Positions 10,469 through 30,554 of a DNA stretch of 64,000 bases are shown piece after piece. The notes beneath the pieces were generated by a model. It ran no database searches and was not told where the DNA came from. It worked only from the letters and a program-made list of their open reading frames with translations. The stretch comes from a virus (Duplodnaviria; Caudoviricetes): positions 96,001 to 160,000 of IMG/VR virus record IMGVR_UViG_3300031853_000001, one strand, 5' to 3'. The number at the start of each line of letters is the position of its first letter. Position 1 is the first letter of the stretch. Both the position numbers and the translations under genes were made by a program.

Positions 10469-10540
10469 GCCGTATTAGTTCAACGGTAGAATAATAGATT
10501 CGTAATCTAGATGCTTGTTCAAATCAAGTATGCGGCTCCA
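10469..10540 (+). tRNA. tRNA-Thr(CGT), compact
   Basis: TAGA-TT CGT AA-TCTA; GCCGTAT/ATGCGGC; TCCA. Confidence 0.75.
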
Positions 10541-18136: not shown

Positions 18137-19756
18137 ATGACTAATTTCAATCAGGTAGTTTCTAATTTTGTTGCTTCTCAGAATTCTTACCCTGTTCGTA
18201 AGAATATTAGCAAGGCTCACGCTTCTTCCTTTATCAATGCGATGAAGCAAGAGGATAACTTCAAGTATACCGAAAATGGTGCGGTAGCCAAGAAGTCTAC
18301 TATGTCCAAGCTATACGACCTATTTGCACTTGGCGGCTCCTATCGTTCTCGCACCGAGAGCGATTGTATCGTTCTTTTTAAGAACGCATATCAGGAGAAC
18401 CCTGCCTATGCTCTAAAGTGCCTATGGTATCTTCGTGATATTCTTGAGGGTCAGGGTGAGCGTCGTTTCTTCCGTGTTTGCTTAAAGTGGCTTGCTACCT
18501 ACGACAAGCAGGCTGTACTACGCAACCTTGATACCATTGCCCGTGATGGTTTCGGCCGCTGGGATGATCTGTTTGTCCTATTTGACACTCCTTGCGAGGA
18601 TGCTGTTATGAAGCTGATTGAAAATCAGCTAGTTAGCGACCTAAAGGCGTATCAGGCCGGTGCCGCAGTATCTCTACTTGGCAAGTGGATTCCTTCCGAG
18701 AACTCCTCTTCTGCCAAGACTAAGCATAATGCTCGTCGCATTATTGCTGCTCTTCACGTATCTCCTCGTGAGTATCGTAAGACTCTATCTGCTCTGCGTG
18801 AGCGTATCCACGTTGTAGAGCGTCTTATGTCCCAGAACCGTTGGGACGAGATTGATTTCTCTCATCTACCTTCTCGTGCTGGCCTGATCTATCGCAAGGC
18901 TTTCGAGCGTCGCGATATGATTCAGCAGAAGTATCGTGAGTTCGCGAAGGATACTTCTACCAAGGTAAATGCTGGTAAGCTATATCCTTACGACGTTGTG
19001 CGTGAGGCACAGAAGGTTATGCACTGTGATTCCTACTGGAATTATGGTTCTCGCGAACCTCGCCTAGACGACACCCAGCGTCTAATGGTTAATAAGTATT
19101 GGGATAACCTACGTAATGTTTTCCCTGCGGGTGAAAACTTTAACGCTATGGTTGTTTGCGATACTTCTAGCTCTATGCTAAATGGAGCAAGCAATACTGC
19201 TTCTCCTATGCAGGTTGCGGTATCTCTGGCAATGTATGCCGCAGAGCGTGCCAACGGTCCTTTCAAGAACCATTATATCAGTTTCAGCCGTCAGGCTCGT
19301 CTGGTAGAGGTTTTTGGTGCGGACTTCTGCGACAAGGTATCTCGTATCATCCGCTCCAATGTGTGCGAGAATACCAATCTTGAAAGTGTTTTCGACCTAG
19401 TGCTAAATACTGCTATGCAGTATCGCCTACCTCGTAACGCTATGCCTAAGACTCTTGTAGTCGTGTCCGATATGGAAGTAGATCGTTCTGCGGGTATTTC
19501 CAGTCATAAGGAAACCTTTATGGAGTCTATGCGTCGTAAGTGGGCTCAGAAGTGCGGCAACCGCTATGAGTTCCCTGACGTAGTGTTCTGGAATGTGTCT
19601 GCTCGCAACGATACTTTCCTAGACGATCCTAAGAGTGGCATTACTTACGTGTCTGGCTGCAGTCCTGTACTGTTTGAGCAGATTCTGTCTGGTAAGACGT
19701 CTATTGACCTTATGCTAGACAAGCTTAACGCTCCTCGCTACAAAGACATCTACTAA
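18137..19756 (+). CDS. DUF2828-family helical-repeat + vWA protein (Ro60/TROVE-like architecture)
   Basis: TENGA..KST, LRDI..GQGERR, GRWDDL, LLGKWIPSE, LYPYDVV, MIDAS motif VCDTSSSM, VSDME, VFWNV. Own promoter; start at ATG 18137 after AAGGAG; strongly biased codons. Confidence 0.8.
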   Translation: MTNFNQVVSNFVASQNSYPVRKNISKAHASSFINAMKQEDNFKYTENGAVAKKSTMSKLYDLFALGGSYRSRTESDCIVLFKNAYQENPAYALKCLWYLRDILEGQGERRFFRVCLKWLATYDKQAVLRNLDTIARDGFGRWDDLFVLFDTPCEDAVMKLIENQLVSDLKAYQAGAAVSLLGKWIPSENSSSAKTKHNARRIIAALHVSPREYRKTLSALRERIHVVERLMSQNRWDEIDFSHLPSRAGLIYRKAFERRDMIQQKYREFAKDTSTKVNAGKLYPYDVVREAQKVMHCDSYWNYGSREPRLDDTQRLMVNKYWDNLRNVFPAGENFNAMVVCDTSSSMLNGASNTASPMQVAVSLAMYAAERANGPFKNHYISFSRQARLVEVFGADFCDKVSRIIRSNVCENTNLESVFDLVLNTAMQYRLPRNAMPKTLVVVSDMEVDRSAGISSHKETFMESMRRKWAQKCGNRYEFPDVVFWNVSARNDTFLDDPKSGITYVSGCSPVLFEQILSGKTSIDLMLDKLNAPRYKDIY

Positions 19757-19851
19757 GGTTAAGTATAAATTTGAGATGGAGAAATCCATCTCTTTTTTAT
19801 TTGACTTATTATAAAAATTTTGATATAATATTTATAGAAAGGATGAGGAAA

Positions 19852-20208
19852 ATGAACTATTACATTTATTTGGATGATGTGCGCGAAGATGATACTTGGT
19901 TTCGACAGCATTTGAATACCGAGCATTGGATTCCTTGTGTTGTTCGTTCTTATGAGGAAGTAATTCATATTCTTGACCATATGCAAGATTATATGGACAA
20001 GGATGAAGTGCTTATTCTCGACCTTGATCACGACCTTGGCGAAACTGAAGATGGTTACAATGAACTCGCGCACACAGGATATGATGTTTGTAAGTGGATG
20101 ATAGAAAATCATTTCCCTGCCTGCTATTTTCACATTCATAGCATGAACGCTAGTGGTTCTGCGAATATGCGACAACTTCTTACTCACTATGGCTATAAGG
20201 AGATTTAA
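19852..20208 (+). CDS. Cyclic-phosphate-processing receiver-like domain protein
   Basis: IYLDDVR...DLDHDLGE...TGYDVCKWM...IHSMNASG. Confidence 0.75.
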   Translation: MNYYIYLDDVREDDTWFRQHLNTEHWIPCVVRSYEEVIHILDHMQDYMDKDEVLILDLDHDLGETEDGYNELAHTGYDVCKWMIENHFPACYFHIHSMNASGSANMRQLLTHYGYKEI

Positions 20209-20408
20209 TATGCTTTTAGATGAAAATAATGATAAAGAAAAGCTTTATAAAATTATTGATTTTCTAATAGAACAAATTAAAAATCTGCAAAGAACTAATT
20301 CTGAAATAAATGAACTTTTGAAAGAATCAATTTTTAGAAAATAATTTCTTGACTTTCTCCAAAAATTCTGATATAATTATTATAGTAAAAGGAAAGGAGA
20401 ATAACATA

Positions 20409-20654
20409 GTGGAAAAGTACAGACCTATTTATAGAGATATTCACGATTGGGCAATTTTGGACGAACGAACTATTCATGATTTTTCTGAAAACGAAACTCC
20501 TATTCACGTGGTAGAAGTTCTTATTGGAACTCTTCATTATGAGCATATAGATTTTAATCAGCATTATACTGAACATCGCACTCCTATTATTCGTTGGCTA
20601 ACTCGTAATGAATATGATTATCTTTGCGCGAATGAAGGCACCGTAATTTGGTAA
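20409..20654 (+). CDS. Hypothetical protein
   Basis: GTG start after AAGGAG, downstream of promoter 20349. Confidence 0.5.
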   Translation: MEKYRPIYRDIHDWAILDERTIHDFSENETPIHVVEVLIGTLHYEHIDFNQHYTEHRTPIIRWLTRNEYDYLCANEGTVIW

Positions 20655-20667
20655 GAAAGGATTAAAT

Positions 20668-21318
20668 ATGCGTAAGTACGAAAAAATTGAAACTCTATTT
20701 GCCCGCGATATGGAAGGCACTAAAAAGCTAATGCCGGGTATTTTTCGTGACCCGACTATTGAGTTTCTTCAGTATTGTGATTGGGTATGGACTGAGAAGA
20801 TAGACGGCACTAATATCCGCGTGTATTGGGATGGCCATAAGGTTACTTTTAGTGGCCGTACCGATAACGCAGTTATTCCCGCAGAACTTATCACTCGTCT
20901 AAATGAACTTTTTAGCGGTGAGACTAATGCTCAAATTTTTGAGCAGGCTTTTGGCGATAAGGAAGTTATTCTATTCGGTGAGGGCTATGGTCGTAAAATT
21001 CAGAAGGGCGGTGGCAAGTATATTGCCGATGGCGTTGATTTTATTCTATTTGACGTTCTAATTGGTGAGAATTATCAAGAACGTGAATGGGTTGAAAGCA
21101 CCGCCAAGATGTTTGGTATTAAGGTCGTCCCAATTGTGGGTGGCGGTTCGCTTGAAGACGCTGTAAATTATGTTAAGAAGCACCCTAATTCGATAATTGC
21201 GGAAGATGTACGAGAAATGGAAGGTATTGTATGTAGACCCGCTGTTGAGCTACGTGACCGTCGTGGTAATCGTATTATTGTAAAAATTAAGTGGGAAGAT
21301 ATAAAGGAGCTTATTTAA
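20668..21318 (+). CDS. ATP-dependent RNA ligase (Rnl2-like nucleotidyltransferase)
   Basis: Motif I TEKIDGTN, ILFGEGYG, FILFDV, EGIVCRP, IVKIK. Confidence 0.8.
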   Translation: MRKYEKIETLFARDMEGTKKLMPGIFRDPTIEFLQYCDWVWTEKIDGTNIRVYWDGHKVTFSGRTDNAVIPAELITRLNELFSGETNAQIFEQAFGDKEVILFGEGYGRKIQKGGGKYIADGVDFILFDVLIGENYQEREWVESTAKMFGIKVVPIVGGGSLEDAVNYVKKHPNSIIAEDVREMEGIVCRPAVELRDRRGNRIIVKIKWEDIKELI

Positions 21319-21665: not shown

Positions 21666-22636
21666 CAGCGCAAAAGGAGAGCAAGCTGTTACTCCGAGTG
21701 AACTTATCGGCGCTATATAAATAGGAAAAACCAATTAAATACAGTATTTTAAATGAAGTAATAACTGCCATAGAAGTCATGACCTATGATAGAAGACACT
21801 TCATTTAAAGCAACCGGTTGATTTGCGCAATTAAGTCGTTAGAAGCGACTAGAGGGAGAGACCCTGACTAATAAGCAAGTCCATTCTATGAAATGGTAAT
21901 GTCGAAAACCAATTAGTGTAAAGTAGCATACCTTACCAATAATAAGGAGAATCAGCGTAGCGAACTGAATTGGCGTACTGGAATTTGTTGTCCAGAGTAG
22001 GCATAAATCGAGCAGCAATGCGGTAATACCCGTGCACAGGTAGCTAAATTACCCTGGCTCACCAATTATTTTAGAAGATAAGACTTGAGCTTATCTCTGG
22101 CTATGAAGCGAGTGCCGTGCCGCAGATGCGGTGCTTAGTGGAGCCTATGTGGGTTTAGCGTGTCAACCACAATGCGGATAGGTATTAACCGAAAGAAAAC
22201 ACGCTTTAATGGCGCTTTATCCCAAGCCTTTTCGCGGCGGCGCTATAAGTACCAAAAGGTATTATTTAATACTGAGCGTGAAACTAAGAGGGAACTGAAG
22301 GCTGTGCCAAGGTGAAAGGCTAACAGTCCGAGTGATGACCGTTGAAGCCATTCGGTGCATAGTGGTGCCGTTAAAGCGATGGATGCATACATCGTCCACT
22401 TCATTTAATGACTTGATGCTTATCAAGCTAGAACTATCGAGGACGTGTGCGGTGGGAATGTTTGAGATTAGATGTAGATAGTTTAAGTATAGACTTGCGG
22501 TGCAAGCCTAATCAACTGGCGTTCCGCGGCCAGAATACTTTGCGGGCTTTATTGATTCGGGAGGAAGTGTCCGTAGATGAACTTCTCGGAGTAATCGCCA
22601 TAATCGAATCAGCCGTGCGGCTGGCATAATGCCGCA
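21666..22636 (+). ncRNA. Large structured ncRNA region (GOLLD-like size and context; identity unverified)
   Basis: ~970 nt with raised GC, many hairpins and no credible ORF, flanked by tRNAs. Confidence 0.45.
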
Positions 22637-22640
22637 ATAT

Positions 22641-22760
22641 GGCACCGTAGTGCAAAGGTAAGCACGCCGGCCTTTGTGAGATAGGGTAAAGTGCAGTTCA
22701 ACTCTGCCGTCTCGCACCACAAGCCGGTGATGCTGGGTTCAAGTCCCGCCGGTGCTTCCA
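22641..22760 (+). tRNA. tRNA-Glu(TTC) interrupted at 35/36 by a 44-nt mini-tRNA (22676-22719)
   Basis: GGCACCG/CGGTGCT acceptor, D arm, CCGGC-CTTT|insert|CAA-GCCGG. Removing the insert gives CT TTC AA. Confidence 0.8.
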
Positions 22761-24871: not shown

Positions 24872-25006
24872 CCACGCGTGGTGCAAATGGCGAGACACAG
24901 CGGACTTACGTAGGCCCAGTGGCTTGTTGGAGAGCAACACTCCTTCCTACGACCAAAATCCGCGACGCAAGATACATTGCTGGTTCAAATCCAGTCGCGT
25001 GGACCA
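24872..25006 (+). tRNA. tRNA-Leu(TAA) interrupted at 35/36 by a 47-nt mini-tRNA (24909-24955)
   Basis: CCACGCG/CGCGTGG-ACCA; GCGGA-CTTA|insert|AAA-TCCGC; long variable arm. Removing the insert gives CT TAA AA. Confidence 0.85.
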
Positions 25007-26725: not shown

Positions 26726-27120
26726 AAAATATTAAAGCGTGCTTTTCCTTGCTGTACACTTGTTGAAAAGCCAAATGTTCCCGTATGAGAATACGCAGGT
26801 TATACCTGTATATTGAAATCCCATAAGACGTCACAAAGGAATGGATAGAAATTACAATGGGCCATTCAGAAAGTAGAACACTTTAATATTTGACTTTTTC
26901 TGAAAATTCTGGTATAATAATTACAGAAACAAGGAAAGGACAAAATAATGAAGATACTTGTTGTAAATAAAGATGAGAAAATACAATTAATTCATCTCCT
27001 AAAACAAGAAATACGCAAACCTGGTTGTCCTTATGAATTACTTACTATTTTAGAAAAACTTAGTCCTGGAGACTATGAATATCTTTTTACAACTATGAAA
27101 TAAAAGAAAGGAAGTAGATA

Positions 27121-27690
27121 CTCCATTTAATAAAATGGTTGAACCAAGTGAAGAAGAGTTAACCACTCTGCTTGGGCTATCTAAATAACAGCCATACGAT
27201 TTAGCGGGATACTACTAAATCGCGGCCACGAAATCAGTAATGATTAGTGATAAGGAGAAACTCTTAATGTTAAGGATAGGCGCTTGGTTATTCGCTAACA
27301 AAAACTTGGCTCCTTGCGGCGTCGTAATAGAAAGCAGATTGAGCAGATTTGCCGAACCCAGAAAAGACTTTAAGGTGGCAGTTAAAGGGACTCTGGGAAA
27401 GCCATAAGACGTTTGGTGTCGTTGAAACCTAGAAATAGGATATAAGCAAGGTTCACAGATAAAGTAGCCTAAAACGACAATGATTCTAATAAGTAATTTA
27501 ATTAGAATAATGTGCTGAATGGTTTAGGTGAAATTTGGGAGTAATCAGTCTCCCCGTTGCTAGCCAAAAGGCAGGATGAAGAAGTTAAAGGGTCGCTACC
27601 TTTGGCTCAGCCTTCATCTTCAACGTGGTTGAATATGTTAGAAGGATAATACAAGTACGGCGAAGGTCGCAACGGTTTTATTAAATGGGG
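27121..27690 (+). ncRNA. ~570-nt large ornate ncRNA (ROOL-like)
   Basis: 21-nt terminal helix CTCCATTTAATAAAATGGTTG / CAACGGTTTTATTAAATGGGG, many internal stems, no ORF. Size and tRNA context fit ROOL. Confidence 0.6.
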
Positions 27691-29245: not shown

Positions 29246-29443
29246 GATAAGTTCACTGGGCTCTTCTAAAGTCCAGTACCAAAGCCGAATGTCACATAAA
29301 GTTAACGACGGTGCGGTATGAAAAGACCACGCTGTAGTGGCACGGGCAGAGCTAATCCGGCAAGGAAAGCGGCGGTTAAAGTGAAATCGCGACGCGGAAA
29401 GAGAAAGAATAACAACCAGTGATGGGTCGAAAGACGTCTTATC
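29246..29443 (+). ncRNA. ~200-nt structured ncRNA of unknown class
   Basis: GATAAG/CTTATC and CACTGG/CCAGTG enclosing helices; GNRA loops; GC-rich. Confidence 0.5.
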
Positions 29444-29464
29444 AGTTTTCTCGGTCACTTTTAT

Positions 29465-29538
29465 AGTCCGTTAGTTTAACAGTAAAATATAACCCTGTCA
29501 CGGTTAAGTTACGAGGGCAGCACTCGTACGGACTGCCA
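29465..29538 (+). tRNA. tRNA-Asp(GTC), non-canonical elbow
   Basis: TAACC-CT GTC AC-GGTTA; T-loop GGCAGCA; GCCA. Confidence 0.85.
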
Positions 29539-29657
29539 TAGACTCAAACAGCAATATTTTACTTGCATGTGGGGCCGGAAGTATTGGTTTAACTCCAGTT
29601 CTCTCCACCACATGGAGAGATAGTGTAACGATAGCACGCCGTATAGTATGAGTCTAG
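29539..29657 (+). ncRNA. ACAGCAA-stem element 4 containing a circularly permuted tRNA
   Basis: TAGACTCA/TGAGTCTA stem; T arm ATTGG-TTTAACT-CCAGT, TCTCTCC-ACCA, CAT linker, GGAGAGA, D arm GTGT-AACGATA-GCAC. Confidence 0.8.
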
Positions 29658-29662
29658 TATAT

Positions 29663-30215
29663 CGGGTTGTAGCGCAGTTTGGTAGCGCGCCTCGCTTGGG
29701 AAAAGCGATTTGTGCTTAATTATTATGTTAGACATTACTCAACAAAAAGGAACGATTACAGAATTACGATGTATTTTAGATTTAACTAATTTGGGAATAC
29801 GATGTTTAGTTCCTGTAGATGAAAGTTCTAAATATGATGTAGTAGCAGATTTAAATGGTACTTTTATTAGAATTCAATGTAAAACAGCTTGTTGGGCTAA
29901 AGATACCGTTCAAGAAAAAGTAGCCTTTGAAATAGATACTTGTCGAAGTACAACAAATACTAAAACTACTACTCATTATAAGTATTCTGCTAATGAAATT
30001 GATTATTTTTATACATGGTTTGAAGGACAAGGTTACTTAGTCTCCATTAAAGAAGCAAAAGGTTTAACTTTTAGATGGCGATATGAATATCCTTCTACCA
30101 ATCAAAAACAAGGTATTCATATCGCAGAATTATATAAGACTGAGGAGGTTTTAAAAGCACTCTAAAATTTTCCTGGACGAGGAGGCCGCAGGTTCAAATC
30201 CTGCCTGCCCGACCA
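29663..30215 (+). tRNA. tRNA-Pro(TGG) split by a ~476-nt endonuclease-coding insertion (29699-30174 in the 35/36 register)
   Basis: 5' half CGGGTTG..CCTCG-CTTG; 3' half GGA-CGAGG..GGTTCAAATCC..CCCG-ACCA. Confidence 0.85.
29725..30165 (+). CDS. PD-(D/E)XK homing endonuclease (I-Ssp6803I-like family)
   Basis: KGTITE...YDVVAD...RIQCKT...Y...EIDYF. Confidence 0.8.
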   Translation: MLDITQQKGTITELRCILDLTNLGIRCLVPVDESSKYDVVADLNGTFIRIQCKTACWAKDTVQEKVAFEIDTCRSTTNTKTTTHYKYSANEIDYFYTWFEGQGYLVSIKEAKGLTFRWRYEYPSTNQKQGIHIAELYKTEEVLKAL

Positions 30216-30326
30216 TAATCAACTGGGTTTGAAGGTTATCCCATTTGAAAAACCTTCCCCTTTCTTTCTTGACTTTTTCTAAAAATTTTGATATAATAAA
30301 TATATCAAAGGAAAGGAAATAAAAAG

Positions 30327-30554
30327 ATGGATAAGAAAGAACTTTCTACTAATGCGGCAAAAGCAGAATTTGTAAAGTCTATTCATAATTGGCTTATGCG
30401 AACTTTAGAGCAAAACAATAAATCTGAATATAAAGATTGTTTTACTGTTGAAGGTTCTAGTATTATGTGCCAACTGCCGCAAGACTACTTTAATTCATGT
30501 AGTATTCCAGCGAACACTAAGATTGAAATGAAGTTTATTTCTAAGAAATCATAA
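30327..30554 (+). CDS. Hypothetical protein
   Basis: Own promoter and RBS. Confidence 0.6.
   Translation: MDKKELSTNAAKAEFVKSIHNWLMRTLEQNNKSEYKDCFTVEGSSIMCQLPQDYFNSCSIPANTKIEMKFISKKS

Follow-up and report, generated by a model that had tools for sequence, protein, structure and literature searches.

A nuclease gene inside tRNA-Pro(UGG)

The 64,000-nucleotide stretch analysed here, referred to as the window, comes from an IMG/VR virus record of 180,932 bp, rated complete by CheckV, of which it covers positions 96001-160000. It contains a long tRNA array together with a ROOL RNA and a drum RNA. When introns are allowed, ARAGORN identifies a tRNA-Pro(UGG) with a 476-nt insert at window positions 29663-30215 (genome 125663-126215); without the intron option the gene is missed. 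This split gene is the sole tRNA-Pro of the 181-kb phage genome, and blastn found no match to the region in the 'phages' collection. The initial annotation had described complete tRNA-Pro(UGG) halves around about 476 nt that are nearly all a PD-(D/E)XK open reading frame. Both descriptions hold, the first by ARAGORN in intron mode and the second by a match of the ORF to Pfam PF11645. The ORF takes up 441 of the 476 nt, leaving 35 nt non-coding, 25 before the ATG and 10 after the stop codon. The parts of the gene are listed below.

29663-29699, plus strand: 5' exon of tRNA-Pro(UGG), nt 1-36, with acceptor, D arm, the 5' strand of the anticodon stem and C32 U33 U34 G35 G36 (ARAGORN -i and 32 copies)
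29700-30175, plus strand: insert (candidate intron), 476 nt in the 36/37 register (ARAGORN and copies; absent from the syntenic tRNA-Pro at L062:741-815)
29725-30165, plus strand: homing endonuclease gene, 146 aa from the ATG, PD-(D/E)XK, I-Ssp6803I family, with E13, D38 and Q51-x-K53 (PF11645; sequence and fold of 2OST)
30176-30215, plus strand: 3' exon of tRNA-Pro, from G37 to CCA (ARAGORN and 32-copy alignment)

The product of the ORF matches PF11645 (PDDEXK_5) with an E-value of 2.6e-20 and 73.3 bits, the cut-off being 26.1, and the sequence of I-Ssp6803I (PDB 2OST) with an E-value of 2.7e-6. The AlphaFold model has a pLDDT of 91, and its best fold match is again 2OST (TM-score 0.75), followed by archaeal Hjc resolvases. 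Across 30 sequences from several intron families the residues E13, D38, Q51 and K53 are unchanged. Judged by sequence and model, the protein is an I-Ssp6803I-type PD-(D/E)XK homing endonuclease, for which cleavage of target DNA is predicted; its earlier assignment to a nuclease family found in tRNA group I introns was therefore sound. There are 357 close homologues of the nuclease, at roughly 70-98% identity, and a large protein library holds 787 nuclease clusters at 50% identity. PD-(D/E)XK homing enzymes cleave across the minor groove and produce 3' overhangs (PMC2175346), and in I-Ssp6803I the cleavage is carried out by two of the four subunits (PMC3017599).

Copies, exact site and mobility of the insert

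Scans of IMG/VR, metagenomes and genomes gave 39 loci with the nuclease gene. In every locus readable across both ends, the gene lies inside the tRNA-Pro of a phage-type tRNA array. The sample sources of the loci include human gut, and two MAG bins carry the element, on short contigs. One copy, L060, has an in-frame stop in the nuclease ORF. A search of IMG/VR for ORF-less derivatives with the same ends, at a spacing of 8-38 nt, found none.

We aligned 32 distinct Pro-type copies. It had been noted that a GGA repeat makes the junction ambiguous from 35/36 to 38/39, which is true for the single sequence alone, and the 35/36 register had been preferred, which the 32 copies overturn. G35, G36, G37 and A38 are invariant, and the adjacent insert bases are variable: the base 3' of G36 is A in 3 of the 32 copies, and L051 and L058, which are independent copies, have an A 5' of G37. 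These two end in ..CCTA/GA (the slash marks the junction), and their anticodon would be altered if the register were 35/36. The junction is at nt 36/37 of tRNA-Pro and not at 35/36, because 36/37 is the only register with an identical canonical loop, YU-NGG-GA, across 32/32 copies. Joined in silico at this position, all 32 products are recognised as tRNA-Pro by ARAGORN without the intron option, 30 of them with the anticodon UGG and two with CGG. Divergence among the nuclease genes of the 32 copies reaches ~37%; pairing in the acceptor, D and T stems is at 98-99%, and the exon stems are without decay.

The same neighbourhood is found in a sister phage, L062 (184,104 bp, with terminal repeats in the record), where the tRNA-Pro, at L062:741-815, is uninterrupted and has the loop UUUGGGA. 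The identity of L062 to the phage studied here falls beside the insertion site, as listed below; the bounds of the L062 segments are one base off on the 5' side, which leaves the picture unchanged.

Upstream spacer: 116/127 identical, 91%
First 26 nt of the tRNA: 23/26 identical, 88%
Anticodon-stem side: 5/10 identical, 50%
3' exon: 25/41 identical, 61%
Downstream: 155/183 identical, 85%

This dip is as expected if it is a trace of co-conversion in homing. The inserts in tRNA-Lys and tRNA-Asp described below likewise differ in presence between two related phages, L004 and L005. From these comparisons the insert is a mobile element, as the initial annotation had claimed; the insert-free allele at the same locus in the sister phage, the co-conversion-like tract and the invariant catalytic residues all speak for it.

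More distant relatives of the nuclease occur in another layout, in which a 5' tRNA fragment is followed by the nuclease gene and a complete spare tRNA (L069, L072, L074, L075). This arrangement shows that such nucleases can apparently break tRNA genes without any intron. To break a tRNA also seems costly, because these relatives bring a spare, and the split type is without one. The lack of a spare argues for splicing; it is equally compatible with selfish insertion into a dispensable gene.

Paired ends of the insert and signals in the coding sequence

The two ends of the insert pair with each other and with the anticodon, forming a rod. Its elements, and two further signals within the ORF, are as follows.

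29697-29704, plus strand: 5' strand of helix H, anticodon U34 G35 G36 and the first five insert bases GAAAA, pairing with 30168-30175 (covariation, RNAalifold, MFE)
29705-29706, plus strand: 5' side of an asymmetric kink-turn-like internal loop, G followed by C here and by A in other copies (32 copies)
29707-29717, plus strand: 5' strands of helix a (GA) and helix b (GTGCTT), separated by a UUU bulge, pairing with 30155-30162
30078-30125, plus strand: conserved hairpin in the ORF, ~15 bp with a 19-nt loop (RNAalifold, MFE)
30142-30148, plus strand: GAGGAGG, a Shine-Dalgarno-like word in the ORF, 5 nt before helix b, kept by GAG codons that are rare elsewhere in the gene
30155-30162, plus strand: 3' strands of helix b (AAGCAC) and helix a (TC), formed by the last ORF codons, with Ile146 encoded by the otherwise rare ATC (covariation, RNAalifold)
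30163-30167, plus strand: 3' side of the internal loop, TAAAA, including the stop codon TAA at 30163-30165 (32 copies)
30168-30175, plus strand: 3' strand of helix H, TTTTC and the 'anti-anticodon' CUG, the last three insert bases (covariation, RNAalifold)

In helix H (alignment columns 37-44 versus 534-541) both sides have changed at four positions. Helix a has 2 bp (29707-08 with 30161-62), and helix b, which closes off the ORF, has 6 bp (29712-17 with 30155-60), every one of them changed on both sides. Over the whole rod, 98.7% of the cells in the 32 copies are standard pairs, and 26 of the 34 pairs show changes on both sides. None of 500 shuffles gave covariation as high, and slid controls were far below. 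RNAalifold predicts the rod independently, and the single-sequence MFE agrees. The pairings GGAAAA/TTTTCC and GTGCTT/AAGCAC, seen earlier in the single sequence, are thus real; they covary in the copies and are found again by RNAalifold. The proposal that they form an acceptor-like helix with one overhanging base has to be given up: the insert instead has a 3-nt 3' tail that is complementary to the anticodon.

In the internal loop the two sides vary strictly together: 19 copies combine G-A-G with UAAGA, and the other 13 combine G-C-G with UAAAA. A kink-turn (UAA bulge, G.A, A.G) fits 19 of the 32 copies; in the other 13 an A.C replaces the key G.A, and the C stem is 2 bp long, followed by the UUU bulge. 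We therefore call the loop only kink-turn-like, since its second form is not a clean fit. The pairing of the insert ends is counted as evidence for selection at the RNA level.

Related loci carry further nuclease-bearing inserts of 460-490 nt in other tRNAs, all at 36/37. The anticodons and the terminal insert triplets of the six tRNA species are:

Pro: anticodon UGG, last three insert bases CUG
Lys: anticodon UUU, last three insert bases AAA
Asp: anticodon GUC, last three insert bases GGC
Ser: anticodon GCU, last three insert bases AGC
Val: anticodon UAC, last three insert bases GUA
Ala: anticodon UGC, last three insert bases GUA

In all six species the terminal triplet pairs with the anticodon, and the first insert bases pair with those just upstream of the triplet. 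The Lys junction is confirmed by an insert-free tRNA-Lys in L004. This pairing places the two junctions 3 bp from each other, one on each strand of the helix. The 5' junction comes directly after nt 36, the 3' junction directly after the partner of nt 34, and nt 35 is their centre of symmetry. If the strands were cut here, both products would bear 3' overhangs. By analogy, the geometry is that of a dimeric nuclease cutting across the minor groove.

Within 22 nt upstream of the ATG, a Shine-Dalgarno core is missing from all 32 Pro-type ORFs but present in 29 of the 46 others in the window. Near the other end of the gene, some 20 nt short of the stop codon, 26 of the 32 have GGAGG or GAGGA. The Ser, Val and Ala types follow the same pattern, with the 3' word and no upstream Shine-Dalgarno; the Lys and Asp types mostly start behind an ordinary Shine-Dalgarno and lack the 3' copy. 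GAGGAGG precedes the ATG only if the insert ends are joined, with the rod hairpin in between and a spacer of ~5 + 7 nt. The word gives indirect support to excision and circularisation. The hairpin at 30078-30125 is nearly invariant, and its few synonymous third-codon changes preserve the pairing. Within it, Ile133 is encoded by the otherwise rare ATC in 27 of the 32 copies. In the codon and hairpin statistics related sequences count as independent, so that their p-values overstate the significance. The Val-type intron has a hairpin of another sequence at the homologous place.

Ribozyme search, candidate machinery and readings of the insert

The initial annotation had seen no group I core, and the covariance-model check it proposed was negative: a search with Rfam at E<=10 over window positions 29400-30500 gave no match to group I or any other ribozyme. 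Nor was there a ribozyme match at the gathering score in 16 related loci searched with the 4227 Rfam families. The tRNA-fMet group I intron of Synechocystis PCC 6803, which encodes I-Ssp6803I, is 655 nt long with a 150-aa ORF (PDB 2OST; PMC1995217, PMC3384342). The phage insert resembles it in nuclease family and fold, ORF size, tRNA host gene, position in the anticodon loop and homing. It differs in having 35 non-coding nt in place of a ribozyme core of ~200 nt, no covariance-model match and no adherence to the U(-1)/omega-G rule. Where the Synechocystis intron has an internal guide, the insert pairs its 3' end with the 5' exon end, and its host is a phage, not a cyanobacterium. The insert also resembles the catalogued group I introns of bacterial tRNA genes (Williams 2020, bioRxiv 10.1101/2020.01.27.920355) in its anticodon-loop site, and several of those types have homing endonucleases; the catalogue requires an Intron_gpI match, so elements such as the phage insert are invisible there.

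A group I intron in degenerate or cryptic form, with its fold overlying the ORF, is hardly credible to us. It was in a group I intron, that of the Synechocystis tRNA-fMet, that the nuclease family first came to light (PMC1995217), and the anticodon loops of bacterial tRNA genes host group I introns at several positions (bioRxiv 10.1101/2020.01.27.920355), but there is no Intron_gpI-type match at E<=10, only 35 nt are non-coding, and the junction bases break the rule of a U before the 5' junction and a terminal G. In Pro the 5' exon ends in G, and in Asp, Val and Ala it ends in C; most families also lack the terminal G, the Lys, Val and Ala inserts ending in A and the Asp and Ser inserts in C. 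The anticodon, as the end of the 5' exon, has its pairing partner in the terminal insert triplet and not in a P1-like guide near the 5' end of the insert.

The phage genome encodes two RNA ligases:

Genome 66583-67725: Rnl1-type RNA ligase
Window 20668-21318: Rnl2-type RNA ligase, adjoining a cyclic-phosphate-processing receiver domain and a DUF7788 protein

Neither RtcB nor an EndA-type endonuclease was found in the phage genome. Five other carrier phages, 91-100% complete, were compared: Rnl1 occurs in one of the five and PF09414 above cut-off in two, three have no RNA ligase above the Pfam cut-off, and RtcB is found in none. A phage RNA ligase as obligatory partner is not supported, as the ligases do not travel with the insert. 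The idea of introns plus a phage RNA ligase is weakened, because the ligases are not constant in the carrier phages. A host ligase, a protein of the element itself, or RNA catalysis would be needed.

Several known routes of removal were considered and set aside. RNase P and RNase Z would act on an acceptor-like helix, and the insert has no T arm and no CCA, with its leader paired to its trailer. RNase III is a poor fit to a rod of ~15 continuous bp with a stagger of 3 nt rather than 2. A canonical bulge-helix-bulge (BHB) motif has two 3-nt bulges and a 4-bp helix; here the helix is continuous, the junctions are 3 bp apart and the bulges are absent. The idea that the rod mimics the sequence of the DNA homing site also failed: apart from the exon half, only the initial GA of the Pro insert agrees with it, and nothing comparable is seen in the Lys and Asp inserts.

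Two ORF-less mini-introns lie in other tRNAs of the phage, at window positions 22641-22757 and 24872-25006. The initial annotation had placed the insert in the same class; with its junction at 36/37, and without T arm and CCA, that placement is not supported. Like them and the 'enigmatic' tRNA introns of Lak megaphages (PMC6784885), it is a non-group-I insert in the anticodon loop of a phage tRNA gene. The mini-tRNA and Lak introns are short, ORF-less and tRNA-shaped, with acceptor stem, T arm and CCA, whereas the insert carries a nuclease gene, uses another register and is optional between sister phages. With the spare-tRNA cassettes described above it shares the nuclease family and a phage tRNA target. 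The cassettes consist of a 5' fragment and a whole replacement gene; the insert, in contrast, keeps both halves exactly and adds a conserved rod.

Archaeal BHB introns may also carry homing endonuclease genes, an example being the rRNA intron that encodes I-DmoI, which forms stable circles. The insert resembles these introns in being ribozyme-less, in carrying a homing endonuclease ORF and in having dyad-related splice sites on opposite strands of a helix, and ligation-closed products, including a circular intron, would be expected in both. Unlike the archaeal introns, it has no 3-nt bulges or 4-bp central helix, its centre consists of 3 continuous bp, and it lies at 36/37 and not 37/38. It is further set apart by belonging to a bacterial virus, in whose genome neither EndA nor RtcB was found, and by a nuclease of the PD-(D/E)XK and not the LAGLIDADG type.

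The initial annotation had proposed a protein-spliced intron, and we too tentatively lean towards excision by proteins, at the symmetric helix, to which we give not quite an even chance. In this reading the element homes, by its own I-Ssp6803I-type enzyme, into the anticodon loop of phage tRNA-Pro genes, between nt 36 and 37. In the transcript, the insert ends and the anticodon prolong the anticodon stem into the rod, through the weak pairs 32/38 and 33/37 and the pairs between anticodon and terminal triplet; further outward follow five insert-insert pairs, the kinked loop and the two helices that close off the ORF. From this anatomy we infer that a protein endonuclease would cut both strands of the rod at the junctions, leaving 3' overhangs on both products, and that a ligase would reseal the tRNA and probably also close the insert into a circle. 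The predicted tRNA junction is ..GCUUGG/GACGAGG.., and the predicted circle (back-spliced) junction is ..UUUUCCUG/GAAAAGCG.. The logic would be that of archaeal BHB splicing with a different motif. This reading is supported by the missing ribozyme match, the covariation of the rod and the same rule in six tRNA species. The invariant exon bases, the intact exon stems and the 32/32 spliced products that are good tRNA-Pro point the same way, as do the insert-free allele of the sister phage, the spare tRNA brought by the relatives that break the gene, and a GAGGAGG that would precede the start codon only after end-joining. The Rnl1-like and Rnl2-like ligases of the phage, its cyclic-phosphate-processing domain and the two ORF-less mini-introns elsewhere are also consistent with it. 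It is weakened in that neither an EndA-type endonuclease nor RtcB was found in the phage, and no RNA ligase above the Pfam cut-off in three of the five other carriers. The rod and the intact exons could, moreover, be explained by an mRNA scaffold plus constant re-invasion, and the conserved ORF hairpins leave room for an unrecognised RNA catalyst. We know of no protein-only tRNA splicing in bacteria or phages. As to which protein would cut, I-Ssp6803I is said to have been found by Bonocora and Shub in 2001 to cut tRNA-fMet DNA on either side of the anticodon, leaving 3-nt 3' overhangs. The two RNA junctions are of this geometry. The homing endonuclease of the insert might also be the splicing endonuclease, the tetrameric enzyme cutting both strands of the rod beside the anticodon. 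Ligation would then restore the tRNA loop and turn the insert into a circular mRNA, in which GAGGAGG would stand upstream of the ATG. This we regard as rather improbable.

The insert may also not be spliced at all, a possibility that we take seriously without holding it probable. In that case a selfish cassette for a homing endonuclease would have put tRNA-Pro out of action, and the nuclease mRNA would use the tRNA body and the rod only as promoter, processing signal and stabilising scaffold. As a rule phages can do without their tRNAs, and co-conversion in homing would keep renewing the exons through re-invasion; the anticodon stem, being part of the rod, would stay paired regardless. The failure to find a constant ligase partner, and the in-frame stop in L060, which fits a cycle of invasion and decay, agree with this. 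However, it leaves unexplained why both junction bases mark the exact start of the helix in six tRNA species, why the split type has no spare tRNA when its breaking relatives do, and why a Shine-Dalgarno-like word stands at the 3' end of the ORF; the almost fully paired acceptor, D and T stems, kept despite the divergence of the nuclease, also tell against it. Self-splicing by a new compact RNA catalyst that overlaps the ORF, built from the rod, the kinked loop and the hairpins of the coding sequence, we consider unlikely. A self-contained mechanism is favoured by the movement of the element among unrelated phages without a constant protein partner. The pairing holds the 5' exon end beside the 3' junction, and the ~15-bp ORF hairpin is near-invariant with its pairing kept and has a Val-type counterpart at the same place. 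Yet such a catalyst has no match in the 4227 Rfam families, and the Lys and Asp families share the architecture of Pro with no conserved core bases and with different internal loops. Junctions across a regular helix are, in addition, the geometry of a dimeric nuclease, unlike that of known ribozymes.

The element is real, mobile, without a known ribozyme and, to our knowledge, undescribed; in the literature we found no description of ribozyme-less, nuclease-bearing tRNA introns in phages. As far as we know, all bacterial and phage tRNA introns of known mechanism are self-splicing. The intron family is widespread in gut and rumen phages. Inventories of phage tRNAs are under-counted, because standard tRNA finders miss or mis-name split genes. 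The anatomy makes the question of splicing testable, as it provides an exact junction, predicted 3-nt staggered cuts, a predicted circular mRNA and natural insert-free targets.

If the insert is not spliced, homing endonucleases would routinely silence phage tRNAs. If it is spliced, RNA splicing that depends on proteins or is new in some other way would exist beyond archaea and eukaryotes, by a route so far undescribed in bacteria or phages. Should the homing enzyme itself make the cuts, bacterial viruses would possess a protein-based intron complete in itself, a counterpart of BHB splicing in archaea. According to an old proposal, archaeal BHB introns arose from group I introns through loss of the core (cited in PMC6125680). 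Splicing of the phage insert would bear on this proposal, since one nuclease family would then be found in introns with a core, in cyanobacteria, and without one, in phages.

Genes and RNAs of the tRNA arrays

The tRNA array of the phage holds two non-coding RNAs, one of them a ROOL RNA. A related phage (L007) has a ROOL RNA as well (L007:4529-5122), adjoining its split tRNA-Pro. At two other related loci, L018 and L021, different RNAs adjoin split tRNA-Lys genes.

Non-coding RNAs near the tRNA arrays
Window 27120-27688, ROOL RNA, 315 bits, in the tRNA array
Window 22098-22209, drum RNA, 71 bits, in the tRNA array
L018:1000-1423, phage-borne tmRNA, 74 bits, adjoining a split tRNA-Lys
L021:2039-2126, partial match to OLE RNA (model positions 437-594), 53 bits, adjoining a split tRNA-Lys

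The array also contains a group of RNA-repair-like genes (window 19361-21318), and the phage has a further ligase gene elsewhere in its genome.

RNA-repair-like genes of the phage
Window 19361-19756, DUF7788
Window 19771-20208, cyclic-phosphate-processing receiver domain (PF20274)
Window 20668-21318, Rnl2-type RNA ligase (PF09414)
Genome 66583-67725 (outside the window), Rnl1-type ligase

Two tRNAs are called by Rfam and missed by ARAGORN, at window 10469-10537 and 29465-29535. The anticodon loop of the latter reads CUGUCAC (Asp GUC), and its T loop is odd. This tRNA directly precedes the split tRNA-Pro, and its syntenic counterpart in the sister phage (L062) is the tRNA-Asp.

Two tRNA genes (window 22641-22757 and 24872-25006) carry ORF-less inserts of 44 and 47 nt that resemble mini-tRNAs ending in ACCA. 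The ARAGORN isotypes of these tRNAs (Val, Leu) vary with the register chosen, and the first is retained in the sister phage with 99% identity. At L018:80-782 an insert of 608 nt with an ORF interrupts a class II tRNA and departs from the rule of insertion at 36/37 with the last three bases pairing with the anticodon. No group I match was found in it with Rfam at the gathering score, and this insert may belong to another type.

Matches in species genomes

In the species-genome collection the sole matches are two short contigs of 17 and 13 kb (L063 and L064), which were binned with MAGs of Congzhengia and Candidatus Nanosyncoccus, respectively. Both look like phage tRNA arrays, and the bins therefore tell little about the host.

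Layout and translation of the nuclease gene

Distant PF11645 genes have a 5' tRNA fragment on one side and, on the other, a whole tRNA of matching type. Such nuclease cassettes supply a spare tRNA instead of cleanly splitting one.

PF11645 genes between a tRNA fragment and a whole tRNA
L069:870-1493, tRNA-Pro
L072:880-1513, tRNA-Thr
L074:960-1493, tRNA-Thr
L075:880-1599, tRNA-Lys

One copy of the nuclease gene (L060:1501-1938) has an in-frame stop and is possibly decaying.

The nuclease ORF contains a hairpin (window 30078-30125, about 15 bp) that hardly varies and whose pairing is preserved through synonymous changes; at the corresponding position the Val-type intron (L039) also forms a hairpin, but its sequence differs.

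None of the 32 aligned Pro-type copies has a Shine-Dalgarno sequence upstream of the nuclease ORF. The word GAGGAGG is instead found close to the 3' end of the ORF (window 30142-30148), maintained by rare GAG codons, and at the equivalent site in relatives (L002-L060, L036:2871-3422, L039:2601-3158 and L071:936-1490), while most Lys- and Asp-type inserts have an ordinary 5' Shine-Dalgarno in place of the 3' word. The absence of the 5' signal, together with the GAGGAGG kept at the 3' end, suggests that the nuclease is translated from a circular or end-joined RNA.
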